A stretch of DNA of 63,885 bases, filler included, from Reclinomonas americana ATCC 50394 (Eukaryota): assembly GCA_048213135.1 (NCBI GenBank). It is 5 parts of 3 records of this genome, joined end to end, with 100 filler letters (N's around TTAATTAATTAA, not from the genome) between each part and the next. Parts side by side here need not be neighbours in the genome. Positions count along the whole stretch, not along the records: positions 41,032 to 59,901 come from PS015026.1; 4 more parts are not named here. One strand, 5' to 3'. Shown here piece after piece: positions 3,759-62,774 of the stretch (position 1 is the first letter of the stretch; every line of letters starts with the position of its first letter). The translations under genes were made by a program, and so were the position numbers. Under the pieces are notes generated by a model that was not told the DNA's origin, did no database searches, and saw only the letters and a list, made by a program, of their open reading frames with translations.

Positions 3759-4612
3759 ATGGACCGCGTGTTGTTTAATGATATGTTCCGCGTGGTGGAG
3801 GTGGACCCAGAGGGAAAGAAGTTTGAGAAAGGTGACTTGCATGCATGTGCAAGTGCCTTTTGTGTGGCTCACAGCAATGCACAGTGTCGCGACTCAAGTG
3901 CAAGAGTGATGGTTTCGAGGCTGACTTGCTGCTCGGTGTGTGCTGTGTGAGAGGGAGTGTGGTGTGTGTGTATGCATGCATGTGTGTGCTCATTTGTGGG
4001 TGCATGCAGACGTCAACATTGAATTGTATCCCATCAATCAGAGTGATAAGTTCACGCTGGCCTTGGCAGAGACACTGGACTTGGATGGCACAGCTGACAG
4101 TTATGCATACATACACATACACACACACTCTCTCTCTCTCTCTCTCTCTCTCTTCCTCATCACTCACTCATTCACACGCGGAGAATGCCATTAAGGGATG
4201 CCGTGATTTGCGTGCATCGCTTGCAGTCTCACTAATCCTCCACACACACACACACACATCACTCACTCACCTCCCTCTTTCTCCCCTTCCTTTACTGCCT
4301 CATCCCAGGCGGTGTGTATGACCCACTACTGGGCACGGACCAGAAGCCCTCACTGATGGACTCGTACGAGTACGTCATGTACGGCAAGGTGTTCAAGTAC
4401 ACGGCCAAGGACAAGGATCTCACAGTGTTGCGCTGCGCCTCCCGTCTCGATCCCTTCTCGCGTCTCTCACTGCGGTCCTCACTTGTGCGTGTCGCAGATC
4501 GGTGTATGCGTCGTTTGGTGGACTGTTGATGAAGCTGACGGGCGACGAGCGCAACTTGGAAAAGATCAGGCCCGACAGCAACATCTACCTGCTCATGCGC
4601 AAGACCACGTGA
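3759..4612 (+). CDS. RPB8: RNA polymerase I/II/III shared subunit RPB8 (RPABC3), 5 exons
   Basis: Spliced product: [50 protein letters not shown]...[17 protein letters not shown]...[17 protein letters not shown]...IYLLMRKTT*. Four GT-AG introns restore the frame. Confidence 0.96.
4180..4244 (+). ncRNA. Candidate intronic hairpin RNA (snoRNA-like) in RPB8 intron 3
   Basis: A non-microsatellite island in an enlarged 209-nt intron. It has a GGAG/CTCC basal stem and an AAG-G-GATGC/GCATC-G-CTT upper stem, followed by ACA. The internal-loop strands GCCATT and GCAGTCTCACT are complementary to a conserved 5' segment of 18S rRNA. Confidence 0.3.
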
Positions 4613-4712: not shown

Positions 4713-6636
4713 CTACTGCTGCTGCTGCTCCCGATCCTCGTCCGTCGGATGCGGAATGGTGTACGAGAGGGCAAAGATGTCGCCGCCGTCGCTCGGCTGC
4801 AGTGCGAGCAATGAGTGAGTGAGTGAGTGAGCGGGACCAGCAGGCGACACGCGAGAGTGTGTGTGCACGACGCAACTTGATTGGCGTGATGCTGTTGGCC
4901 GCAGGCGGCGACAATCTGCACGAGAACGCGCACGGTGTGAGGCACTATGGCAGAAAGATGATCGACATGCACCACGAACCACATGGTTCTGGTCTGGCGA
5001 GTACGCCATGTCAATGAAGAATTGACTGCCGCGGGCCGTGTACGTGGCCAGCGGAATGCGCGAGTTGGTGGAGAAGAGCTGCACTTGCGGAATGGTATTG
5101 TCCTGTGGCGGCAAGCGAAGCAGGTCAACACAAACAGGCACTGCAGACATGCAGTTGTCGCAGGCACGCAACTCCGTCGCCAAACGACGCCGCCGCCATG
5201 TAGTACTCGTTGGTGGCGTTGGGTCGCGACAGCAGAGCCACGCTCCAAATGGCGTCCTTGTCGTTGGTGTCGGCATTCTCTGTGCATCACCTGCGTGTCA
5301 GCTGCAACACAGCGTGCGTCGCACTGCGTAACCTCGCAGCCGCACGCAACTCGGATACATGTACGACCAGCGAGCCGCAAGTGGGAATGGCGGATCGGAG
5401 AACGGAGTCTTGTACAGCTGCGAGAGATATAGAGAGATTTTTGTGAGTCACGCTTTCCTGTGATGGATGACACGCATTCCACACCGTGAGAATGTTCTGC
5501 GAGAAGAACTTGTGGTACCAGCCAATGGCCACAGCGCCCTCGGCAAACGTACACGTGCCGGCGGCCATTTGCGTCGAGAACGGCCCATCCGGAGGAAGAA
5601 TCTGTCGGAACTTCTCCAGCCGCGTGCCCGAGTCGTTGCTCTTGTAGATCTCCAGGTGGCCATCGTAGCCGACGACCAGGTACTTGCCGTCGGGCGACAT
5701 GCACAAGGCATTGGAGAGGTACGGAGCCGTGTCATTCAGCAGCGTGTTGCCCTTTTCGTCGAACGCCACCACCAGGCCAGTCTTGTCAGCTGCGGCGAGA
5801 AGGTGAGTGGCAAAAGACATGAACACGTGTGCGTGCGTGCACACACAACTGTCACGCCGCACGACCAGCGCCATCGCCCTGCCGTCGGCACGCGCTGCCA
5901 TCGACCACGCCTCGTACGTGGCCGGCAGCGGTTGCTTCATAATCACGCCGCCCGTGTGCTGATCCAGCATCAGCGCGTACGACTGGATGGTTGGTTTCTG
6001 TGGGGAAGAGTGTCGATAATGAGCACCACATCGTCGTCACAACGCACTAATGACGCACGCTTCTATCGGTGAGCGCCGACAACATGATCTTCCCATCATT
6101 CGAGAGCAGAATGGTGTTGATGCCGGGCGGATCGCACGGCTGCTGCCCACAGTCATAGATCTACACCTCCCACACAGACGCATGTGAGCAACAATCACAG
6201 AGAATCACCACCAAGAAGAAGACGCACCCACGCCGAGTTCTGCGAGGTGACCGACGAGCCGCCCTCGAAGCGCACTCGCGAATACGTCTGGTACTGCACC
6301 GCCACCGCAAACTCTCCCGTCTCACTGCTCACCCCCCTCAAATGAGCAACGAGGAACCTCCACCAATGAGAGACACAAGCAAGACACACCGTGAGGCCGC
6401 TGTAAACGCATCGCCCATCTCCGATCGCTGCCACATGACAGGCGCATCCGCAATCGCCGGTCTCAGTGTGACATTATACGGTGGATTCAGCAGCAGTGCG
6501 CTCAGCACAAGCGCCGTCTGCTGTCCCTGATAAGGCCTACATAACAGCAAAAGAATACAATGCGAAGACAGACGGAGAAAAACGGAATGCGTTTCTGTGA
6601 GTGAGTGAGTGAGAGAGGCAGGGAGTGTTGTGAGGG

Positions 6637-7929: not shown

Positions 7930-10900
7930 CTACTCGGACGCAGCCGCGTCGGCGGCAGGCTCCTCTCCACCGGCATCGGCTTCCGCAGCAGGTGCAGCGG
8001 CGGATTCGGCGGGCGCGCCTTCGCCACCTGAGCCTGAGCCTTCGCCTTCTCCTTCGCCGGCTGCGGCTGCGGCTGCGTCGTCGCTATCGGTGGCTGCTGG
8101 AGGCGCGACTTCCTCTTCTGCTGCGCCTTCGCCTTGCTCGGCGTGCTGCTCTCCGGAGCCCTCGCCTTCGCCGGCCGGAGGAGCGTCGGCGTGGGTCGCG
8201 GTGTGATCGGTATCGCCGCCTGCATCGTGGTGCTCCTCGTGTGCGTGTCGCTCCACGAGAGAGGCGGCTGAGGAGGAGCGGCGGGCATGGGTCGGTGCCG
8301 GTTTGATCGACTCCGCAAAGTCCACCAGAGCCTGTTTGTGTGTTTGACAATTACATCAGTGGACTGGTTGATCGATGCAACGACGCAGAGCGTGCACAAA
8401 CAAGACCTGCTTCAGCTGCGCAAACAACTCGTCCTCCGGCAGGATGAACGCCATGTCTGGCTGCGACGCGAGCACATCTCAGCGTGCTGCATGTCGTCAC
8501 ACAGAGAGATACTTGTCTGCACTTACCGGTGCCTCCGCCTCCTCTTCCGCCTCGGCCTCTGGCTCGGCCTCCGCCGGTGCTCCACCCTCGNNNNNNNNNN
8601 NNNNNNNNNNNNNNNNNNNNNNNNNNNNNNNNNNNNNNNNNNNNNNNNNNNNNNNNNNNNNNNNNNNNNNNNNNNNNNNNNNNNNNNNNNNNNNNNNNNN
8701 NNNNNNNNNNNNNNNNNNNNNNNNNNNNNNNNNNNNNNNNNNNNNNNNNNNNNNNNNNNNNNNNNNNNNNNNNNNNNNNNNNNNNNNNNNNNNNNNNNNN
8801 NNNNNNNNNNNNNNNNNNNNNNNNNNNNNNNNNNNNNNNNNNNNNNNNNNNNNNNNNNNNNNNNNNNNNNNNNNNNNNNNNNNNNNNNNNNNNNNNNNNN
8901 NNNNNNNNNNNNNNNNNNNNNNNNNNNNNNNNNNNNGCTTGCGTGCGTCTTTTTTTTCTGTGCGGCTCACTTCACGCACTTGCAGGTACGGTTTCTTGGA
9001 GCGATTAGAGATCTTGAATGAGGACGATGCGTCGCGGCAAGGCAAGCTGCACGACTGGCTCAACGATTTCAAGACGCGCATGGCGGGGGTTGCGTGGCAA
9101 TGCCGGTGTCCTTTTGTTTTTCTGTCACTCTTTCTCACCCTCTCGTGCAGGACGACAAGCACCTCAACTTTGTCATGCGCATCGGGTGGCGAACGGTGGT
9201 GCGCCAGCCGGTTCCCAGCGACGCGCTGTGGGCACCGACCGAGCCTTACGACCAGGCACTGGTGGAGCGCTTTGTGAGTCGCAAGGAGTTGAACGATCTG
9301 CGAGCGATGGCGCGTGATCCGTCGGCCAGCGCTGGCACGTCAGGATTCTGTCGTGTCCTCAGGTACTTGCGGTGTGCTCACACGCACACCTCGCTCTCCC
9401 TCTCTCTCGCGTGCTGACGCTGTGTTGCCAGCCGCTACGTCATTCCCATCAAGACTTTCGCGGAGCGTGAGCTGGAGAGAAAGGAGCGCGCCGAGGCACT
9501 GGCTGCCGCCGCCGCCGCTCGTGCAGCCATGGCTGCGGAAAGTGANNNNNNNNNNNNNNNNNNNNNNNNNNNNNNNNNNNNNNNNNNNNNNNNNNNNNAA
9601 GCAAGCAGGCGACGAGCAACGCAACAGATCGTTCTTATCGATGAGCAGCTTCAGCGAGTCCACCATGCCGACCAGCTCGTTCTTCGACTTTTCGTAGTTG
9701 GAATCCACGTCGGCCTCGAACATGGCCTGCAGAAAAAACAAAACATACAGAGTGAGCAACTGATCTCAAGCGAGTGAATGGAGTAGAAAGGAGAAGAACC
9801 GCCCTCGTGTGGTGGAAGGGCAGTGTAAGGAAGATAGGTCCTTTTGTCTCTTCTTTCTCACGAGAAAACATGCAACGTGCAGCTGAATGAAGGAGCGTGT
9901 GTGCATGTCTTCTCTTTCTGTCTCTCGCAAAAGCAACGCAGCAGCTGAGTGAGGAGAGTGGTGGAGAGTAGAAGGTTGAAGAAGAGCTTCCCTCCCACAG
10001 CGCAGAGGAGCATGCACTTCGTACGCACTGGCCTCTCTTCTCTCTTTCCATCTCACTCAAAGCAATGCAGCAGCTGAGTGAGAGGAGAGGACGAGAGAAT
10101 GGAGGACGCAGTGTAGAGGAGCATGCAACACTGGCTGAGTGCAGCTGAATGAAGGAACGTGTATCTCTCTCCTGCCTCATTCAAAGCAGCGAAGCAACTG
10201 AGTGCGAGGAGAGTGGCGGAGAGTGGAAGGTAGAAGAAGAGCTTCCCTCTCTCGTGAGTGGCAGAGGGTGGTGGCTGAGTGAATAGAGCGTTAGTGAGGA
10301 GAGTGGCGGAGAGTGGCGGAGAGTGGAAGGTAGAAGAAGAGCTTCCGTCTCTCTCATGAGAAGCAGGACGTGCTGTCTTCTCTCACTAGTCACTCTCCAG
10401 ACAGCGCAGACGAGAGGCAACAAGCAGCAGAGAGTAAAGCACAGTCTTCTCTCTCTCTCTCTTTCTCTCTCACTCTCTTCTCTCTCCTTCTCCTCTCCTT
10501 CCCACTCACCATATCAACGAGATCTTCTCCCATGGAGCTCTTGAGCTCAATCTCCTTCCAAAAGTCCTTCTCAAAGCTCAGCTTCTTCAGCTCCTTCTTC
10601 TCCTCCTCCAAGAACGCCACATCTTTGTCAATCTCCTCCTCCAAGTGCCTAAACACACACACACACAAGTCAGTCTCTGTGTGTGAGAGAGAAAGAGTGA
10701 GTGAGAGAGCGCAACTTGGTGTACTGTCCCAGTGTCTTCAGTGCAGAGTCGGCCAAGGCCTGTCGCGCACGATCGCCCTTTTGTTGGCTCATCATCAAGT
10801 CCTGTGTGTGTGTGTGAGAGAGAGTGTGTGAGTGTGTGCAAGTCATGACTGTTTTTTAGTTGCCTTCTTGTTGCACTTATCACCTGTTCAAGTAGCGTTG

Positions 10901-44178: not shown

Positions 44179-47100
44179 ATGTCACGCAAACCGGGCATGG
44201 CTCGTGTGCCCTCGGGCTCAGTGGCAGCCAGTTGTGTCTCAGTCGGACACGTGCTTGTGTGTGTTGACTTTTGTCTCACTCTCTCTCTCTCTCTACGCAC
44301 ACAGGCGACGCACCCGCCAGTGTGGGCAGCAGTGGTGGCACCGCATCTGGCGATGTGGATGCGTTTCCCGATGTGCATCACCGCATGAGCAAGAAGATCG
44401 CACAGCTGTTGTGTATGATATTTCGGGGTAGGCTGTTTGGTATGTTGCGTGACTGACTGATGGTCTCTGTGTGTGTGTGTGTGTGTGTGCACAGAACCAA
44501 GGTCATCTATCACCTCAACACGCAAAACGACAATCATCGATGGGAGATGCAGGCGCTGGCCGACTCGTATGAGAAGGAGATTGAGGATGTTGAGTCTCTC
44601 ACTCTCTCTCTCTGCGTTGGCCTCTCACTCTCGCACGTTCACTCACGCGATCGACTATATGTGTGTGTGTGTGTAAAAGGTGGTCCGCGATGCCAATGCC
44701 AAGATGACTGTGTACAGACAGCAAGTGGAGGCGGCGAAGAACGATCGGAAGACTGCGGATGCGCTCAAGCGACTGGCCGAGGATCACCAGCGAGAGAAGG
44801 AGGCAGCCATTCGCGAGTTTGAGGAGTTCCAGCGTCGCTCGCAGGACGAGCTGAAGCAGACGAAGCGTGATGCGACGCAGAGAATAGAGGCCATGGGATC
44901 GGAGCTGGCCTCGCTCAAGCAGGAGATGCAGCGACGTATCAAGGCCTTTTCCGATGCACTGGAGGTGGCTCGTGCCGGGTCGAACCAGTCGCTGCAGGCC
45001 ATGATTGAGGCGCATCAGGTGAGTCCGTTTGTCTGTTTCTGTGTGCGTGTGTGTGCGAGTCTCTCATTACCGGTGTCGCCAGACCGAGGTGGCCAACTTG
45101 GTGCGCGAGAGCAACGAAAAGTATCATCGCATGCTGGCGCAAAAGATGGCCGAGCAGGAGGAGCTGCGTGCGGAGATGGAGGCGGAGCAAGAGAAGGCGC
45201 TGAAGCGACTGCGCGCTGAGCTCGCTGCCGAGGCCGACAAGTCGTCACGTGCCGCCACGCGAGCTCTCCGAGAGGAGCTGGAGAAGCAAGTGGAGGAGGA
45301 GAAGGCTCGTGCCGATCGCCTCGATGCCGAAGTCAAACGTCTGCGTGGTGTCGAGACGCGTCTGAACACGGAAGTGATGGAGCTGAAGCGGAGTGTTGCG
45401 TAGTCGATTTGATTGATGGAAACGGGTGGCGAGTCAGTTGGCTGACGTACGTGTGTTCTCTGCGCAGAACACGACACTGGAGGAGCAGCTGAATCAGCGA
45501 GCCGCAGATTTGGGTCGTGAGCGCGCCGAGCGTGGTGCGGCGGAGATGGAGCTGCGGGCGTTGCAGGATCGCATGAATAAGGCAGTGCAAGGTGTGTGAG
45601 TCTCTTTTCTTTTCTCACCATGTTTTCGGGGAAGTTGCTCACCTGCGGACAGACCGCGAGAACACCATCGATGCTGTGCGCGCCGAGGTTGCCACGCTGC
45701 AAGAGACAGTGAAGCGACTCACCATGGAGCTCGAGGTGTGTGTTTGGTGTATGATTTCCCTGCTGTCTGGTATATTGGTGGACGCTGATGACACTTTGCA
45801 TCTTGCTGTAGCAAACCCAAACGGGTTCGTCGGACGTGCAAATGCAGCTGCATGACTCACGCAAGGAGAACGAGTCGCTGCGCACGCAAGTCGGTCAGCT
45901 GAAGGCCGAGGTTAATAAGCTGGCCAACGAGGTGTCGGCACTGCAAGAAAAGGTTGGTGTGCGTAGCGGCACCTCCTCTGATGCACACCATTCACACACT
46001 CACGTGACGTCACAGATTGCCGACATGGAGCAAGAGACGGACGTGCTGAAGAAGGTTGTGATGGAACGCGATGGCGAGATCGACAGGTTAAAGGATCGGA
46101 TTCACTCGCTCAACGAGGAGATGGCACAGGCTCGCCGCGATGCCGAGGCTGAGAAACGTTTCGTGTTGTTGGGGTGTGAAAGTAGGTGTGCAACTGCTGA
46201 CTTCCCTTTCGTGCAGGGCGTCTCGAGGGTGACATTGCCTCTCTGGAGCAGGTCTGTGCCATCCCTCGCAAAGAATGTGCAAGTCACTGATGGCTGACCA
46301 ATGCCGTATGTGTGCGTGTGCAGAGGGCTCGTCAGATTGCCTCCGAGTCGTCGTCTTCGACGGCGGAGTTGCAGGAGCAGAGTCGTCTGGCGATGGACAA
46401 TCTGCGCGCGCAGCACAGGAAAGCACTGGATGAGTTGCATGCGCAGATGGAGGAGAAGAAGACGCGAGAGATTTCGGAGATGATGATCAAGCACGCCAAG
46501 GAGATCGAGTCGTGGAGCCATCGTCTGGGAGCCAAGGAGAGCGAACTGGAGGCGTTGCAGGAGGCACTCAAGGCACGAGCGAACTTGTCGTCGGAGGAAG
46601 TGCAAGCACTGCGTGAGCAGCTCGCACAGTTGAAGACCGCCAAGGAGAAGAGCGAGCATGAGGCGCACGCACAGCTTCAGCAAGCGTACGCTTCGGCGGC
46701 CGCCAAGGATGCCGAGATGCAAGCAATGTTGGAGCGCCTGCGAGTTTCGTGCAGTATTTCTTTGCGATTTGGTGTGTGTGATTTGTTTTGCCGACGACAC
46801 TGGCACACAGAACGAGAAGCAAGCAGTGGAGAAGGAACTGGCCACACTCCGGCAACAACTCGAATCCGAGCGAGTTGCGTGGCAAGCTCTCCGTTCTCAT
46901 CTGGAGTTGCTTTGTGATCTTAACTCTCTCCCCCCACAGGCCAATGCGCAGAATGCCAGTGGTGATGTGGCGCAGTTGAGGCAACAATTGGCCGATTCTC
47001 AGCGGCAACGCGAAAGCGAGCGCACGGAGGCCGAGCAGAGGCTACGCAGCGAAGTGAAGCGCGTGACCGAGGAGATCACTCGCAAATGGTGTGTGCCAGA

Positions 47101-48921
47101 ATGCAGCCCGTCGGTGTACTTTCTTCTGTTCTCACCCCTTGTTTTTGTGCGGTGTAGGACCGACGACGTGGAGTTCAAGTTGCACGATCAGAAGAGCCGA
47201 CTGACGACAGAGCACGAAGTTGCGTCTCTGGTCCCCCACCGCAGCATGCAGTGCGCTCTTGCTGATGATGTGTGCGACGCAGGGTGCCATGAGGAAGCTC
47301 GAGCAGAGCAAGAACGACGAGATTGCACGACTGACTGCGGAACTCAACACCGCCAAGAGCCAATCGGAGGCCAGCAGCCGCTCGCTGCAGTCTCAAATGC
47401 AGGAGGAACTCAGTCGTATGCAAGCGGTGCGTGCTATAATGCTGCAATCCTGTGAATATCATCAATCTCACCGTGCGTGTGCCCTCGGCAGGAGTTGGAA
47501 AGAGTACGCGCCGCGGAGCAGGGCTCCAAAGACGCACTGCAGCGCAAGCTGGAGAGCGACTTGGCACAACTGCGCTCACAGTTGCACCCACCCCACTTGT
47601 CGTGCTTTGTCTCTCGATGATTCGAGTGCTCAATTGCTGCGCTGCGTGCAGACATGCGGCCGAGTTGCAACGTGTGCGTGAAGAGGGTGAGAAGCAGTTG
47701 CGCGACGCCGTGGCCAAGGCGCAACGCGAGGGCGACGATCGTGTGGAGGCCGCAAAGCGTGAGCTGCAGGCGCAGATGCAGGCTGCACTGGCGGTCAGTG
47801 TTCATCAGACTGAATAGTTCTCTGAGTTCTTCGCAAAATGCTCACCTCTGCTTTGGAACGTGTGCAGGATGCCAAGAACAAGGCCGACCAGGCCCTCAGC
47901 AAGGCGGCTTCTGACATGGCCGCGGCCAAGGACGCCGACAAGAACAGTGCGCTGGAAGCGTTGCGAGCGGAATTTGCTCGCGAGAAGCAGGCACTCACGG
48001 CTCAGCATGCCACCGTGCTGGCCGACTGGGAGCGGCGCAAGAGCGAGTGGGCAAGCGAGAAGACCGCCCTCGAAGGCGACAAGACGCGCCTGACGGTAAT
48101 GCCACTTGCGAACTCGATGTGTTGTTGTTTTGGATGACTTGACTGAGATCTGGCTGGCGCAGAACGACGTGCATCGCGTACAATCGCAACTGTCGCAGCT
48201 GGAGAACGACTTGCAGACGGCCAACAACGAAATCAGAAGACAACTGAACGAGATGATGGAGACGAAGCGGCAGCTGGTGGATGAGATGGCTCAGCGCGAA
48301 CGCGAGCTGAAGCACGAGCGAGATCGTGCACTGGCCGCTCTCGATGCCTCCCACCAGGGCGTGATCGCCCGCATGAATGAGGACTTTGGTCGGGCACGCG
48401 AGCTGTTTGAGCAAAAGGACGCACTGTGGGCGCAAAAGTTGCGGCGCACGCGCTTGTTTAGGGCGATGAGAATGATGATGATGATGCTCACTGTGTTATT
48501 TTGTCTTCTCTCCAGATATGCGGAACTGGAGGACCGCTGGATGCATCGCGAGAGCCGCCCCGAGGACCTGCAGCTCATTCACGATCTGCAAGAGGAGCTT
48601 GGCATGACGCAGGAGCGACTGGCCAAGGCCATCGAGGACATGAAGCTGTACAAGTTGGAGCTCATCAACCGCGAGGAGTCCTACAACAAGACCTTTGGCA
48701 GATCGCCCACTGTCGGCGTGATGAACCCGGTGGGCGGCAGTAACAAGTCCAACGGCAGCGCTTCTGGTGCCGGCAAGCCACTGCAGAAGCAAAAATCGGC
48801 CACGAACGGCATGCAGCTTGGAGGAATTCCCGGTGGCCTCCCGCCTGTGCCCTCGGCCGCTGGCAGCAGCGGCCGAGCGCCAAGTGTGACACGTACTGGC
48901 CCCGCAGGTCCCTCTAGGTGA
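44179..48921 (+). CDS. FAM184: FAM184A/B-like coiled-coil protein, 20 exons
   Basis: N-terminal MSKKIAQLTKVIYHLNTQND and C-terminal RESRPEDLQLI...KLELINREESYNKTFGRSPTVGVMNP are FAM184 hallmarks. All 19 introns were checked for frame. Divergent from the kinesin (264 bp). Confidence 0.88.
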
Positions 48922-53437: not shown

Positions 53438-55749
53438 TCAATCAGCCGAGTCGCTGTCGGTCACCGCCCCGGCGCTGTTGTATCGCTCGAGCAGGCGACC
53501 GCGCGGACCGACTGTGCCAGAGAGCTGCGGGCTGGACTTGGAGCGCATGAACACGCTGCAGAGGCTCTGCTCGCCCGGCACGCCGACTTTGATGGGGAAG
53601 CCGTAGTGGCCGGTGCCCTTGTGCACGTAGAGTACGTTGGTGCCCTTGGCCCACACGTCGCAGTCGGGGATGCGCGCCAGGCTGACCACGGTGGCGCGCA
53701 GGCCCAGTGAGTAGAGGCCAATGTGCCCGCCGTGTGTGTGGCCCGACAGCACCAGCGCGTTGTAGGTGTCGGGAACAAAGTTAAAGTCTGGTGTGGCATA
53801 GAAAGGAGATGAGCATCACCAAGCATATACACAAACGCACGCACACGCCACACGAAACGTGCAGGGTTGTGCAGCAGCAGCAGTCTGAGGTCGGCGTCAG
53901 GGCGCGGCGGGAAACGCTCACACAACTGCGACAGGAGGCACGAGTGAGAGAGCGCTGCAAAAGAAATCGCTTCTGCCGTCGTCAGCCAAACCTCCTCCAC
54001 GCGGGCCTTCTGGTTGGCAAAGTAAAAATCAAAGCCGACCATCTGCACATTGACTCGGCGACCATGGTCGACCTCTGCGAGAACGGCCCCGGAGTGAGCA
54101 AATCCAGGTGTGGTTAGCACAGCACAACAACGAAGGACTTGCCGACGCTGATCACTTGCTCTTGGTTGACCAGCAGGGGAATGCCCAACTCTTGGAACAC
54201 TGTGGGCGTAAAGCAGAGGGGATGAGGAGAAGTCGTGACGCGTCACTCTGCGCCATGAATCGACTCACCGCTGGTCACCATGGGAAGGTTCTCGTGATCG
54301 TGGTTCTGTTGAGAACGGAGAGGTGAGCCGTGGCGACGTGCACGCAGACATCAAACGCCAACGCAACTCCCAGACACGCGAATACACGGCCACGACGCGC
54401 CCACTCCTCCAAGGCGCTGAATGCGCGCACCAGGATCGGCCGAGCCGAGTCTTGATTGGTCTCGACGGTGAGGTAATCGCCGGCTGCACAAGAGTTCGCT
54501 GTCAGCGTGTGCGGACGGAGACGGCGCGACATGAGACGAACGCACTGAGAATGATGAGGTGCGGGTTGCGTGCAATGGCGTCGCTGATGATCCAGCTCAG
54601 GCGCTCGGGCGACATGAACGGTCCAATGTGCGGATCGGTGATCTGGAAGAGACGCAGCTCGGCAATGTCGTCGTCCGAGTTCACCACCAGCTTACGGTGC
54701 TTGTCCACCTCCGAGATGAGATACTCTACAGCCACACTACCGCGGTCAGGTGCGCACTCGGCAGAGGATTCAAATGCCTCAACACACCTTTGTTACCGCG
54801 ACGGACGCTGACAAAGGCCGGAGCATGTCGATCCACATCGTGCAGGCGAAGGCCAAACTGCACCAAACAAGTGAGCGACGTGCGCCCAATCCTCCCAGTT
54901 CCCCTTCCACTCACCTCCGACTGGAGCGAGAAGCGGCTCTGGAAGAACGTCAGGCAGCACACGACAAAGAAGAACGCCCACACGCACAGCGGGTACCACG
55001 GCCGGCCCTGCAGGTGGTCACCGTCAAGCAACTGCATCGAGCTCACACACAGTCACACAAAGCACCAACCGGCGGGTCGAGGAACAGCAGGCGCGAGATG
55101 AGCACCACCGGAAAGGTCAGGCCGACCGACGCCTGTGCACGCTCCTGCCTAGTCAGCACTGCTCCATCACAAGGCAGAAGGAACAGAACGCAACGACAAA
55201 CACAAAGCCCGGGTACGTCACAAACACCTTCCACAGAGTCGGCTTCACTCCAGGTCGCACATACGACAGCAACTGCGCACGTGCACACAAGACAGTGAGC
55301 GCACGATCGCTGATAATCGCAGCGAGGCAGGTTACCTGCAAGAAGGCGAGTGTGACCATGCCAAACCACGCATAGTTCAAGTAGGCGAACCAGAACGGCT
55401 GCGTCTGGTCGGCGACAAAGAGATAGTCGCCAGAGACAAAGTCTGCAAGGAAACAGTGAGTGAGAGAGAGCGAGAGAGTGAGAAAGAGAGAGCGATTGGT
55501 GAGCGGACCTGCGGGTGGTTGTCGACCAAGCCACGGCTCAAAGCACGCATTGTACACAAACATAAAGACCAGCTGTGCACGCAGAGGTGCAGAGGTGAGC
55601 ACACACGAGAGAGACTGACAAAAAGAGAGGATTGATTGCGGAACTTGCGGAACAGCGACAAAGGCCTTTGTGCGCGGGCTCTTGCGCGGTGTAAAGCACA
55701 CGCTCAGCAGCGCCAACAGGACGCAATAACACGAAAAGATCGACAACAT
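53438..55749 (-). CDS. Multi-pass membrane protein with calcineurin-like metallophosphoesterase domain (YkuE/TMPPE-like)
   Basis: N-terminal hydrophobic helices, then the motifs QITDPHIG, GDYL, LG|NHD, LLLHNP and LSGHTHGGH. Confidence 0.88.
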
Positions 55750-56782: not shown

Positions 56783-59700
56783 TTAAAAGCGTCCGCGGCC
56801 CCTGCATACACACACACACACACAGTCAGCCACTGGAGCCGGCCGCGCACAAGAGAGAAACGACAGACGCAACGGAGGGCGGCGGCCTCGTGGTGCGCCA
56901 GGGGCGTTGCCGGGTGCCTCGGACTTGGGGTTGCGGACGGTCTCGTCCACCGACAGAATCATGCATGCTGCCTCGGTGGCGCTCTCCCAGGCGTTGCGCT
57001 TGACGAGTGCGGGCTCCCACACGAACGACTCGTATGTGTCGCACACACCCTCGTTCTCAATGTCCACGCCGAATCGTTGCCGGCCTGCAGCACACATTGA
57101 CTCTGACAGTGAGCAGCCTGTACCAACCAACCCCTACATGCATCAAGCATCGCAGCTCACCCTTGGCATGCGCCTGTCGCAGCTTGTTCATAATGTCGGT
57201 CGAGTCGAAGCCGGCGTTCTCCGCCACCTGTCGCGGAATGATCTCGAGGGCCTTGGCGAACGCGTTGATGATCAGCTGCTGCTTGCCGGCAATGGTGCGG
57301 GCGTGATCGTGCAGGAACTTGCTGACTTCCATCTACCGACACCAAGAGGGCAAAGTGAGTAAAGAGACAGGCTCACAGAGGCGGAAAAACAACCAACCTC
57401 AATGGCACCACCACCGGCCACCAGAGAGCTGTGTTGAATGGCGCGGCGCACAATCATGATGGCGTCGTGCAACGAGCGCTCCGCCTCATCAATGTACTGC
57501 TCGGCACCGCCACGCAGCACAATCGTGGCCGTACGTGTCTACGCAATCACCATCAGCACACTTTTCGTCACACACACACTCGGCGCATATCATCACGCAG
57601 ACGCAAACCTGCGGGCACTCCTTGAAAATGTTGTATCGCTCGTTGCCGACTTGCACCTCCTCAAAGACGCCGCACGTGCCGAGAATGTCGGCGCCGAGGC
57701 GGTTGACCGAGGTCTGCACACGGGCACCCGTGGCCTTGCAAATGCGCGCAGCATCCTACACGTGTGTGCGCAAGATGTCAACAACCAATCACAGCACATC
57801 ACAAGCAACTGAACATGTAAATATCGACGCAACATCCTTGCTCACGCGACCAGCGCAGAAAATGTCGCGATCGGCAAAGAACTGGGTGGCGAGATCGCCA
57901 ATCGGCAGCGTCGACAGCACAATCTGGGCGCCGCACGCGGCAATCTTGTTCAGCTTGTCGTAGATAATGTCCCACTCGGCGTCGACAATGGCCTGGTACT
58001 GGGTGGGGTCGGTGATCTTGACCTCGGCGTTCTCCTTCTCGGCCTTCAGCTCCAGCTCGTGGTTGAGCATGAGGATGTGCGGGGTGCGGAACGACTTGGG
58101 CTGCTGCTCAAAGCCGGCGTACGAGAAGGTCTTCTTGAAGGCGACACCCTCCACCAGGAACGAGTCCTCCATCGAGCCACCCTGCACCTTCTTGATGCCA
58201 ATCATGTCGAGCGACAGATCCTCCTCCAGCAGCATGACAGCGTCGACCACCATGCGCGAGAAGGTCTCCTTGGAGCCGGCAATCAGCTTCGAGTTGAGCG
58301 ACGTCGACGCGCAGTGCAGCAGCAGCTCGCGCTTCTCCGACAGCGGCTTGCCCTCCAAGTGCTCAGCCTGCTCGTGCAGCTTCTCGAGCGCCTGTGCAGA
58401 GAGAGAGAGAAGAGAGAATGAGCATTGTGAGATGCAGGGGGAAGTGCCGGGAGTGTGTGGGGAGAGCACAACGCAACGAGGGAGCAAGCGCGTCGGAAAC
58501 CATTGATGACGATCTGCGGGTGCACGCCGTCCTCCACAAACTGCTTGGCCTCCTTCAGCAGCTCACCAGCCAGCACCGTCACCGAGGTGGTGCCGTCACC
58601 GACCTGCAACACGTGCAAGGATGAGAAAGAGAGAAGAAGAAGAAGAGGAGGGAAGCAACAACTCACCTCCGCATCCTGCGACTTGGCAATGTCGGTCAGC
58701 GTGCGCGCAGCCGGANNNNNNNNNNNNNNNNNNNNNNNNNNNNNNNNNNNNNNNNNNNNNNNNNNNNNNNNNNNNNNNNNNNNNNNNNNNNNNNNNNNNN
58801 NNNNNNNNNNNNNNNNNNNNNNNNNNNNNNNNNNNNNNNNNNNNNNNNNNNNNNNNNNNNNNNNNNNNNNNNNNNNNNNNNNNNNNNNNNNNNNNNNNNN
58901 NNNNNNNNNNNNNNNNNNNNNNNNNNNNNNNNNNNNNNNNNNNNNNNNNNNNNNNNNNNNNNNNNNNNNNNNNNNNNNNNNNNNNNNNNNNNNNNNNNNN
59001 NNNNNNNNNNNNNNNNNNNNNNNNNNNNNNNNNNNNNNNNNNNNNNNNNNNNNNNNNNNNNNNNNNNNNNNNNNNNNNNNNNNNNNNNNNNNNNNNNNNN
59101 NNNNNNNNNNNNNNNNNNNNNNNNNNNNNNNNNNNNNNNNNNNNNNNNNNNNNNNNNNNNNNNNNNNNNNNNNNNNNNNNNNNNNNNNNNNNNNNNNNNN
59201 NNNNNNNNNNNNNNNNNNNNNNNNNNNNNNNNNNNNNNNNNNNNNNNNNNNNNNNNNNNNNNNNNNNNNNNNNNNNNNNNNNNNNNNNNNNNNNNNNNNN
59301 NNNNNNNNNNNNNNNNNNNNNNNNNNNNNNNNNNNNNNNNNNNNNNNNNNNNNNNNNNNNNNNNNNNNNNNNNNNNNNNNNNNNNNNNNNNNNNNNNNNN
59401 NNNNNTGCACAATGTCGAGCAGCTTGATGATGGTGGCGCCGTCATTGGAGATGGTCACCTTGCGGCCATCGTGAATGAGCTTGTCCATGCCACGCGGTCC
59501 CAGCGTCGGTCGCACCTTTGCGATGACGAGAGATGAGTGATCAGTTTACACACTTTTTAAACATGCACTTTGCATGCACACGCACCACATCAACGACCGC
59601 CAAGCAGGCGTCAATGTTGGAGACGAGCTGCGGGCAGGCACACACACAGAAAAAGTGAGCGTTTGAGCAGTTGTCGCGCCTCCACCACACACAAAAGAGC

Positions 59701-59791
59701 GCGCGCGCACACACGCAGAGAAAAAGCAACAAACCTGAGGAATGCCCTGCGAGTCGTCTGTGCCCTCTCGCAGGAGGATAATCTGAGGTTG
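56783..59791 (-). CDS. CCT7: Chaperonin CCT/TRiC subunit eta; first mini-exon (ATG CAA TCC) possibly at 60030-60038 across the spacer
   Basis: [106 protein letters not shown]. Confidence 0.96.
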
Positions 59792-60217: not shown

Positions 60218-62774
60218 ATGGATTCCGGCACGCACATGTCGCAGTTCGTGGTGCTGTCGACCATGGGCACGGCGTCGCCGAGTCAGAGTCCGCATGTTGT
60301 ACGGCGAGCCAGTCTGCGTGGTGCGTCTGTGTGACCAGCGTGTGTGTGATTGGCGTCTTGTCGCTCAAGTCTTGAGTGAGCGCAGGGGTTCGACGATCGT
60401 CGCGTGTGGGTGTCGTGAATCGAGCGTATGCAGTGGATGTGGGCGGTGGCGAGTCGCTGCCACATGCAGGCGACTCGGACTCGTTCTCGGCGACTTGCGA
60501 CAGTCCCGACACATGGATCTATGGTGCAGACATGGCGGCGATGCCGACGACCCCGCTGGTGGCGCCGTTTCCCGTCGCCGACAGTGATGCGCTGTCGTCG
60601 TCGTGCCTGCTGGATCGGTACGATAGGGGGCCGGATAATCCTCGATTCTCCTCTGCGTTTAGTTCGACAGCGGTCGTTGCCGAGGAGACGGAGGTCGGTC
60701 GTCGACTGAGCGCCACGCGACGCGGATCGGCTTCGTCGACGGCCTCCGATGGCAGCGAGTCACTGAAAGAGTCGCTGCTACGCTCGGCCAGTGCGTACCC
60801 TCACTTGGCTTGCGCTCCACGTTGCTTCCCATCTGAACGATTGTCCAACAGCTCTCGGAACCATGATGGCCACGTCGCTGGCTCGACAGCGAGAGGAGAT
60901 GGACGAGTTGAGATCGATGCGGATCACGTTGGTGGAGCAGCTGTTTCGCTCGCAGGAGGAGTGTGCACGGTTGATGCGGGAGTTGGCGCAGGGGCAGACG
61001 GCCTCCGAGGCACTGCAGGAGGCCTACAGACGCGAGGTGCAAGAGAAGAACAAGGCCAAGTGCGCGTTAGAAGTGGCACTGCAACAGCTGGAGGTGGAGG
61101 AGGCGGCGCGTGTGCAGAGCGATCGTCGCTCCGCCAACTTGCAGGCGCAGCTTGCACAGTTGCAGCAGGCAAATGCACAGTTGCTCGCGGAACGACAGGA
61201 GCTGACGGCGGAGGTGCGACAGCTGCGCGAGGATAATGAGCGTCAGCGCGCTGACTTTGAGGAAGAACGCACGGCGATGCAAGGTACGCTGGGGAGGCAA
61301 AATGACGCAACACATCGTCATTCTTACAAACGTTGTTGGCACAGCCACCATTGAGAAACTAAAGGAGAGTCTGGACGAGGCGCTGTGTCTCATGCCGGTC
61401 ACGGCCACTGCACCGCAAGTCAACGGGCAAGAAGTCACTCGTCTGCGCGCCAACCTGGACGCCAGTGAGAGGGCGCGCATCGAGTTGGAACGGCAGCTGA
61501 CGGATGCACGTCGTGAACTGTCGCATGTGCGTCTGGAGGAGCAAGCGCTGCAGGTGCGGCTGGAGGACCTCGATCATGCCAATGCGCACTTGAGATTAGC
61601 GCTCGAGCGAAGCGACTCTGGATTGTTGTCGCTCTCGGCTCGATCACGGCCACGTGCGCCGTCCATGGCAGAGCAGCTGTCAATGGTGATGGAGGCGAGC
61701 GACTCGGACATGGAGTCCTGCGTAGATGATGAGCATGGCGCAAGCACGAACACATCTGTTGACCCAGAAGGGGTCGATGATGTTCACCAAGACGCAGTCG
61801 ACAATGATGGACAGGAGAGCCTGGTGTCATCGGTGACTACCGGCCTGCATCTCAGCTCATGTGCATAAGTTTCTTGTGGTAACACCTCCTCTCTCTCTCT
61901 CTCTCCACGCAGTGTTCAAGACCCACGTCACCTGTCACTCCCTCCACAAAATCGGTGCCGTCGCCGACCATGGATCTTTCGCCAGTGCTCATGGTGGAGG
62001 GCGAGGCACCAGAGTGGTCTCCCCAGGCCGTTTTCCGTCCTCTGACAGAGATGCAGATTGGCGTCGGCGATTTGGCGGCACCATCGGTGCCATGCGATGT
62101 GCACTCGCTGGCCGGAAACAGCAGTCACACAGTGGCCAGTGGATCCACTGCCGACGCCCACAGTATGGTGTCGCTTGCGCCAACCGAGGACCTGTTGTGT
62201 GCGGTGCACATGATTACCACCGATGTCGGCCTTTCGTCGGTGAGATGCATCGACGATGGGGAGTGGTAGAAATATGTTGCTCATATTTGCTCTGCAGTTG
62301 TCCATCACGTCCGAGTCATTACTGCACAAGCAGCAGTTGGCTCTCCTCAGTCACCACGACATGACAGCGGCCGATTCGGAGGCTGACGAAGAGGATGATG
62401 ATGACGATGACGATGACTTGCTGGTCGTGGATGTGTGCGTCGTGGACGACGATGTACCGGCGATCGACGGCTCCATCGCCATGGCTGTGGCCATTCCGCT
62501 ATCACCCAGCGGTTCTGTCGATGCGACTTCGCCAGTGGAAACGCGGAAAGCCGTGTGTCGGCCCACACATCGAGTGTCGGCCAGTCTCGGCAGCGAGTTC
62601 TGCTTTGGCGCTCAGCGATCACCGCTGTCGCTGCACTTGTCGATCGATCAGCAGGCAGAGATGTGCTCGTTGGTGGTGAGCTCGCTCAGTGCCAGTCCGG
62701 TGGGATCCTCCAGTTGCAACGACAGCAGCACCGACAGTTTCTACCCCGACTGGTGCGACGATCAGCACGACATT
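60218..62774 (+). CDS. Unknown coiled-coil protein with low-complexity acidic regions (start uncertain, 3' end truncated)
   Basis: Heptad-rich exons MMATSLARQREEMDELRSMRITLVEQL...ENERQRADFEEERTAMQ / ATIEKLKESLDEAL...RLEDLDHANAHLRLALE, separated by GT-AG introns. Confidence 0.6.

Follow-up and report, generated by a model that had tools for sequence, protein, structure and literature searches.

The stretch of DNA analysed here, referred to as the window throughout, comprises 63,885 nucleotides (nt) of Reclinomonas americana ATCC 50394 (assembly GCA_048213135.1), joined from five parts of three records. It is gene-dense, with short introns of ~60-90 nt, and includes 21 runs of N. This study concerns the 5' splice sites (donors) of its genes, in particular those of a FAM184-like coiled-coil gene and of the genes encoding the chaperonin CCT-eta and the WASH-complex subunit SWIP. 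On the evidence of the sequence, our analysis confirmed that the window derives from an intron-rich eukaryote whose predicted introns are of the U2-type GT-AG kind with two sorts of donor. Class 1, G/GT(G/T)NGT (the slash denotes the predicted exon-intron boundary), follows an exon ending in G and reveals the usual G+5/T+6. Class 2, /GTTGCGT, follows A, T or C, carries G-T at +6/+7, and accounts for roughly 30-38% of the predicted introns here. All features are collected in Table 1.

The FAM184-like gene, in which both donor classes were noticed in an initial annotation, gives rise to a single open frame of 3384 nt, from the ATG at 44197 to the stop codon at 48919-48921, under the 19-intron model. 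Its family label is borne out by Pfam PF15665 (FAM184), which matches exon 3 (profile positions 1-28) and exon 4 (31-141) and continues unbroken over the GTTGAGT junction 44588/44680, where exon 3 ends at position 29 and exon 4 starts at position 30. A homologue search with exon 4 gave no scoring match, and exon 1 is without homology support. Both donor lists of the initial annotation agree with the sequence: the ten GTT heptamers lie where they had been placed, each after A, C or T, with G+5 in none and G+6 in nine of the ten, and the nine donors after G read as listed. The claim that all 19 introns are placed by reading frame stands for 15 of them, by frame or by an in-frame stop. The remaining four (45953, 46874, 47089 and 48438) keep the frame and contain no in-frame stop, and what supports them is motif, acceptor and a fall in codon score; for the 66-nt intron at 46874 the mean codon score is -0.17, as against +0.31 and +0.18 in the adjoining exons. 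The lengths of these four introns (45953-46015, 46874-46939, 47089-47157 and 48438-48515, plus strand) are divisible by three, and their retention would keep the frame and add 21-26 residues.

Donors were also called by a motif-blind model, which combines GT..AG ends with a codon score trained on six long exons of the FAM184-like gene. Within this gene it recovers 9/9 donors after G and 7/10 GTT donors at the same base; it takes the GT at 44411 over that at 44408, and it reads through 46874 and 48438. At 44231 and 44408, where the donor reads GTTGTGT, another GT compatible with the frame follows three bases downstream. Across the window, the model yielded 16 strand-resolved gene models with 116 predicted introns, of which the 74 no longer than 115 nt and with a score of 7 or more for both flanking exons were kept. 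In 39 of the 74, only one GT within ±18 nt is compatible with the frame; the other 35 are ambiguous and stay outside the count. Among the 39, GTT with G+6 is found in 10/14 donors after non-G and in 1/25 after G (p = 1.5e-5). When the FAM184-like gene is left out, the proportions are 7/11 and 1/22 (p = 5e-4).

A curated set of 60 comprises the 19 introns of the FAM184-like gene, the 13 with homology-placed junctions and 28 other model introns without ambiguity. Here the proposed link between a non-G at -1 and GTT with G+6 holds with 18/23 donors after non-G vs 1/37 after G (p = 6e-10), while G+5 occurs in 1/23 after non-G vs 30/37 after G. The 18 class-2 donors with GTT and G+6 are drawn from six gene models. 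An estimated frequency of a third to a half of all introns is likewise in keeping with the data: 23 of the 60 curated introns (38%) and 14 of the 39 motif-blind introns follow a non-G exon end, and GTT with G+6 makes up 30% of the 60. That class 2 is used when the exon does not end in G holds as a tendency and fails as a rule, since a few GTTGCGT donors follow G, at 26288 in the counted set and at 9089 and 22367 as motif-blind model calls only.

Junctions were placed independently by homology only, any boundary dinucleotides being allowed, for CCT-eta against two homologues and for SWIP against its best homologue. After G, the CCT-eta junctions read G/GTTTGT, G/GTGCGT, G/GTGAGT, G/GTTTGC, G/GTTGGT and G/GTGAGC, and after non-G C/GTTGCGT (58477) and T/GTTGCGT (57833). 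SWIP contributes G/GTGCTG, G/GTGTGT (2 points under the top placement) and G/GTGAGT after G, and A/GTTGCGT twice after non-G (13539 and 13285); two more SWIP junctions are too divergent for placement and lie outside the 13 counted. For each of the 13, only a single GT-AG placement reaches the best score or comes within 3 points of it, and /GTTGCGT is found at 4/4 junctions after non-G and at 0/9 after G (p = 0.0014). Cleavage before the first GT, as initially proposed, holds at all four homology-testable GTTGCGT junctions: averaged over 40 CCT homologues or six SWIP homologues, offsets of ±3 and ±6 cost 9-15 BLOSUM points. GC-AG introns starting three bases later are thereby excluded, offset +3 lying 9-11 points below offset 0 at each of the four. 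In the window as a whole, GTTGCGT occurs 38 times vs 14.17 ± 3.74 expected, a number reached in 0/100 shuffles; many copies lie at exon ends, and the motif is enriched on coding strands.

Base composition separates the two classes further. In class 1 (n = 37), +3 is G in 22 and T in 7 donors, +4 is A in 13, T in 12 and C in 8, +5 is G in 30 and +6 is T in 22. The class-2 donors (n = 23) have T at +3 in 20, G at +4 in 18, C at +5 in 16, G at +6 in 18 and T at +7 in 17. Slid by one base, class 1 reads G G T K N G T from -1 to +6, and class 2 reads G T T G C G T from +1 to +7. The initial annotation had collapsed both into one motif. Its two-class description stands, with G-T at +6/+7 instead of +5/+6, and the displaced register is valid as a description; the single motif does not stand, because C is in excess at class-2 +5 (16/23 vs 8/37 at the equivalent class-1 +4, p = 3.6e-4) and the classes are thus not one motif slid by a base. 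Neither the median intron length (71 nt in class 2, 68 nt in class 1) nor the share of CAG acceptors (18/23 and 31/37) differs. A branch-point-like YTRAY lies in the last 45 nt of 11/18 class-2 and 11/37 class-1 introns, these being raw counts without a chance expectation. Model donors after A that read GTGCGT, the intron part of class 1 without the exon G, are located at 60791 (plus strand) and, among the ambiguous cases, at 54545 (minus strand).

Table 1. Genes, gene models and predicted donors of the window; a slash marks the predicted exon-intron boundary
Feature	Position	Strand	Basis or remark
FAM184-like coiled-coil gene	44197..48921	+	20 exons, 19 introns of 59-91 nt, 1127 codons
Class 2, A/GTTGTGT, phase 1	44231..44237	+	Required by frame; motif-blind model; tandem GT 3 nt downstream
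Class 2, T/GTTGTGT, phase 2	44408..44414	+	In-frame stop within intron; motif-blind model took 44411
Class 2, T/GTTGAGT, phase 0	44589..44595	+	Motif-blind model; FAM184 profile continuous
Class 2, T/GTTGCGT	45395..45401	+	Motif-blind model; intron retention gives three in-frame stops
Class 2, C/GTTTCGT	46158..46164	+	Frame; motif-blind model
Class 2, A/GTTTCGT	46744..46750	+	Frame; motif-blind model
Class 2, A/GTTGCGT	46874..46880	+	In-frame stop-free 66-nt intron; not required by frame
Class 2, A/GTTGCGT	47219..47225	+	Frame; motif-blind model
Class 2, A/GTTGCAC, atypical, without G+6	47581..47587	+	Frame; motif-blind model
Class 2, A/GTTGCGG	48438..48444	+	In-frame stop-free 78-nt intron; not required by frame
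Class 2, C/GTTGCGT, CCT-eta	58471..58477	-	Junction 58477..58392 from homology alone; offset 0 best over 40 homologues
Class 2, T/GTTGCGT, CCT-eta	57827..57833	-	Homology alone; motif-blind model; offset test
Class 2 (probable), C/GTTGCGT, CCT-eta	56867..56873	-	Motif only; precedes 19-nt last coding exon
Class 2, A/GTTGCGT, SWIP	13533..13539	-	Homology alone; offset test
Class 2, A/GTTGCGT, SWIP	13279..13285	-	Homology alone; offset test
Class 2, T/GTTGCGT, SWIP	14823..14829	-	Motif-blind model; sole frame-compatible GT
Class 2, A/GTTGCGT, large unnamed gene	38668..38674	-	Motif-blind model
Class 2, T/GTTGCGT, large unnamed gene	40698..40704	-	Motif-blind model
Class 2, A/GTTGCGT, gene model 4980-6332	5166..5172	-	Motif-blind model
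Class 2, T/GTTGCGC, Rpb8 gene	4427..4433	+	Pfam gene; motif-blind model
Donor after G, GTGAGT	45019	+	
Donors after G, GTGTGT	45592, 45736, 47089	+	
Donor after G, GTTGGT	45953	+	
Donor after G, GTCTGT	46252	+	
Donor after G, GTGCGT	47427	+	
Donor after G, GTCAGT	47794	+	
Donor after G, GTAATG	48096	+	
Rpb8 gene	about 4.2-4.6 kb	+	Pfam
Gene model without name	4980-6332	-	Gene model
WASH-complex subunit SWIP gene	11.2-16.9 kb	-	Pfam
MINDY-3/4 gene	31.0-32.5 kb	+	Pfam
Large unnamed gene	34560-40909	-	~1660 codons, 22 exons
Kinesin motor piece	41033-41374	+	Pfam
Kinesin motor piece	42417-43346	-	Pfam
DAO oxidoreductase	49.1-51.2 kb	-	Pfam
Lysine methyltransferase	51.3-52.0 kb	+	Pfam
CCT/TCP-1 chaperonin (CCT-eta)	56.8-59.8 kb (56903-59791)	-	Pfam

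A shifted register is known from rare human donors, and +1 shifted-register 5' splice sites in mammals were reportedly described by Roca and Krainer in 2009, a study cited in PMC4856993. Such mammalian sites resemble class 2 in starting with GU-U, in carrying G-U at +6/+7 and in having no G at -1, and their cleavage stays at the GU despite a pairing displaced by one base. The human examples have A-A at +4/+5, which fits the standard U1, whereas class 2 has G-C, which does not; moreover, the register is rare in human and class 2 makes up about a third of the introns here. Class-2 donors thus share with them a poor canonical fit and G-U at +6/+7, and are not predicted to pair stably with the standard U1 in the shifted register, although the organism's own U1 may differ.

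According to PMC11732430, donors fall into two established classes, exon-side AG//GUNNN and intron-side NN//GURAG. The window likewise has one class that depends on the end of the exon and one that depends on the intron, with the one signal traded against the other (p = 6e-10 for the anticorrelation in the 60 introns). The intron-side class elsewhere keeps G+5, whereas the signal here lies one base further in and has a sequence of its own, GUUGCGU, with T+3 in 20/23, G+4 in 18/23 and C+5 in 16/23 in place of GURAG. A further relation is to donors with bulged and asymmetric-loop registers, which were validated in human and amount to 1.5% of 201,541 donors (PMC4856993). In these donors, too, one additional nucleotide separates the GU from the G-U paired with U1 C4-A3; unlike class 2, which is largely without G(-1), they keep G(-1), and they are rare. 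The donors of the window combine the trade-off of the two-class split with the displacement of shifted-register donors and differ in frequency and heptamer. Displaced donors as a common class are unusual. A literature search, with supplements and subscription papers outside its coverage, found no paper on GTTGCGT/GUUGCGU as a splice motif and none on nuclear splice signals of jakobids.

Duplexes with the donors were predicted for the standard U1 5' end, the sequence of which was taken from PMC4856993. Class 1 pairs with it at -7.0 kcal/mol, in the canonical register in 37/37 cases. For class 2, the mean is only -1.7 kcal/mol, with the shifted register dominant in 5/18. Of the options offered in the initial annotation, routine shifted pairing to an ordinary U1 is consequently the weakest: the pairing is weak and follows no consistent register, so that an ordinary U1 in the shifted register is a poor explanation by itself. 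With G-C hypothetically placed at positions 5-6 of the U1 end, the predicted pairing becomes -9.1 kcal/mol for class 1 (canonical register in 34/37) and -7.2 kcal/mol for class 2 (shifted register in 15/18).

We suggest, with a probability of about one half, that class 2 is recognised via a U1 5' end paired one nucleotide off the cut site, followed by cleavage at the GU by U6, U5 and Prp8. In this register, the +1 G of the class-2 intron would fill the place that is held by the exon G(-1) in class 1, and the catalytic centre (U6, U5, Prp8) would then set cleavage at the GU. Since the standard U1 pairs too weakly and class 2 demands G-C-G at +4 to +6, the U1 5' end of this organism is predicted to be non-standard, e.g., with G-C at positions 5-6 where others have U-U. 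We favour such displaced pairing to a non-standard U1 and regard a second U1 as its main rival. On a broader and tentative view, this lineage may have changed its U1 5' end, which ranks among the most conserved RNA sequences of eukaryotes, or keep two U1 species, a third of its introns being routinely cut one base upstream of the site set by the U1 register. If U1 has been changed or doubled, the active site would have to accommodate one nucleotide more than usual between the GU and the U6-paired G-U.

Several observations weigh against displaced pairing. Besides the C+5 excess and the weak binding of class 2 to the standard U1 end, the exon base at -1 of class 2 is T in 9/23, though a shifted register should prefer A. 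Individual donors depart from the pattern, i.e., A/GTGCGT at 60791, T/GTTGATT at 34659, A/GTTGCAC at 47581 and G/GTTGCGT at 26288, as do two weak 101-nt model introns at 2357 and 23042. The basis is 64 kb with about nine gene models, the junctions derive from sequence alone, and no U1 or U6 gene was found in the window. A search of the window for small nuclear RNA genes gave none at Rfam gathering scores, and at E <= 1 it returned three weak microRNA-like matches only.

The C+5 excess is what a dedicated second U1, or another small RNA complementary to all seven GUUGCGU bases, would predict, with a standard U1 serving class 1 and no shift at all. This reading, which we consider rather unlikely but ahead of the others, has in its favour that all seven class-2 positions are conserved, C+5 included (p = 3.6e-4), and that no particular exon base is needed; for a hypothetical fully complementary end, the predicted pairing is -10.7 kcal/mol with class 2, the register being the same in 18/18, and just -5.8 kcal/mol with class 1, in scattered registers. 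No such RNA has been seen, the window containing no match to a small nuclear RNA, and the close agreement of the two class motifs after a one-base slide would have to be a coincidence. To our knowledge, the U1 variants of other organisms serve few introns. If, instead, U1 paired with G+1/U+2, one U of +2/+3 bulged out and pairing resumed from G+4 to U+7, the relation to the cut site would be unchanged; class 2 equals the class-1 intron part GTGCGT plus one extra T, and one-nucleotide bulge registers at +2/+3 were validated in human cells (PMC4856993). U1 C9 would keep its exon partner G(-1), which should therefore be favoured as in class 1, yet GTT with G+6 is found in 1/37 after G vs 18/23 after non-G, so that the bulge accounts for the sequence and not for the loss of G(-1). 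Nor do the predicted duplexes with the standard U1 settle on the bulged register, and we regard this reading as improbable.

Recognition in which a protein or U6/U5 plays the main part instead of U1, class 2 being a local form of the intron-side NN//GURAG class, is likewise given little probability. The trade-off between exon-side and intron-side signals is a known two-class pattern (PMC11732430), and class 2 pairs weakly with the standard U1. The intron-side class elsewhere has R+3, A+4 and G+5, however, whereas the donors here have U+3, G+4 and C+5. By inspection, the U6 ACAGAGA box offers no apparent contiguous complement to GCG. Finally, the junctions might be misplaced, e.g., as GC-AG introns starting three bases later (GTT/GCGT), or the gene models might be wrong. 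The frame is preserved at offset +3, two FAM184 donors have a tandem GT at +4, and the motif-blind model misplaced one of the five CCT donors that it called. Set against this are the loss of 9-11 points at offset +3 at 4/4 testable junctions, the continuity of the Pfam profile at 44588/44680 and the enrichment of the motif on coding strands, and an artefact is hardly credible.

Three other kinds of intron were considered and rejected. U12-type introns have the donor consensus RTATCCTT, which no class-2 donor resembles. Introner-like mobile introns do not fit, as shared 8-mers per pair beyond the ends number 0.24 among class-2 introns vs 0.13 and 0.12, and the sequences are visibly unrelated. 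Non-conventional introns of the euglenozoan kind, in which the two intron ends pair with each other, were dismissed with a pairing of -7.4 kcal/mol for an intron's own ends vs -7.0 ± 0.7 kcal/mol with the ends of other introns.

What fixes the cut site after U1 leaves, and how far U1 pairing and cleavage can be uncoupled, are questions addressed so far with engineered donors and a few rare human ones. A displaced signal in about a third of its natural introns would make an organism a ready-made system for them, in which the make-up of U1 and U6, the accommodation of the extra nucleotide and a separate regulation of the two classes could be asked about. In practical terms, gene finding in this genome will put many junctions in the wrong place if the program was trained on a single donor model.

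Among the other genes of the window, CCT-eta finds its best named relative in the jakobid Seculamonas, with 78% identity over the query exon, other eukaryotes reaching about 70% or less, a hint of a jakobid-like origin; its relatives in metagenome DNA comprise 80 loci, the best with 69% identity and none close enough for kin. Andalucia godoyi, a sequenced jakobid, is described as intron-poor in PMC7050145 and is therefore not the source of the window. The alignment of CCT-eta to its homologues stops at 56873; in the region 56783-56873 (minus strand) the gene seems to close with the 19-nt coding exon, and the intron before it contains a CTGAC branch-like site and a TG run before CAG. The Rpb8 junction sits in a variable loop, and solved structures did not fix the residue. 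The large unnamed gene has the strongest coding signal of the whole window; open frames of at least 95 amino acids gave no Pfam match, and a search with its 421-residue exon found no homologue. The two kinesin pieces, on opposite strands, flank the N run 41622-42378 and cover profile positions 281-327 and 76-272; from the sequence they may represent either two converging genes or an inverted contig in the scaffold.

Two further minus-strand copies of GTTGCGT each close an open coding stretch next to an N run: the copy at 16370-16376, with the run 15853-16343 beginning ~30 bases downstream, and that at 9619-9625, with the run 9546-9598 beginning ~25 bases downstream. Introns seem to be where the gaps of the assembly lie, perhaps on account of their TG/CT repeats.

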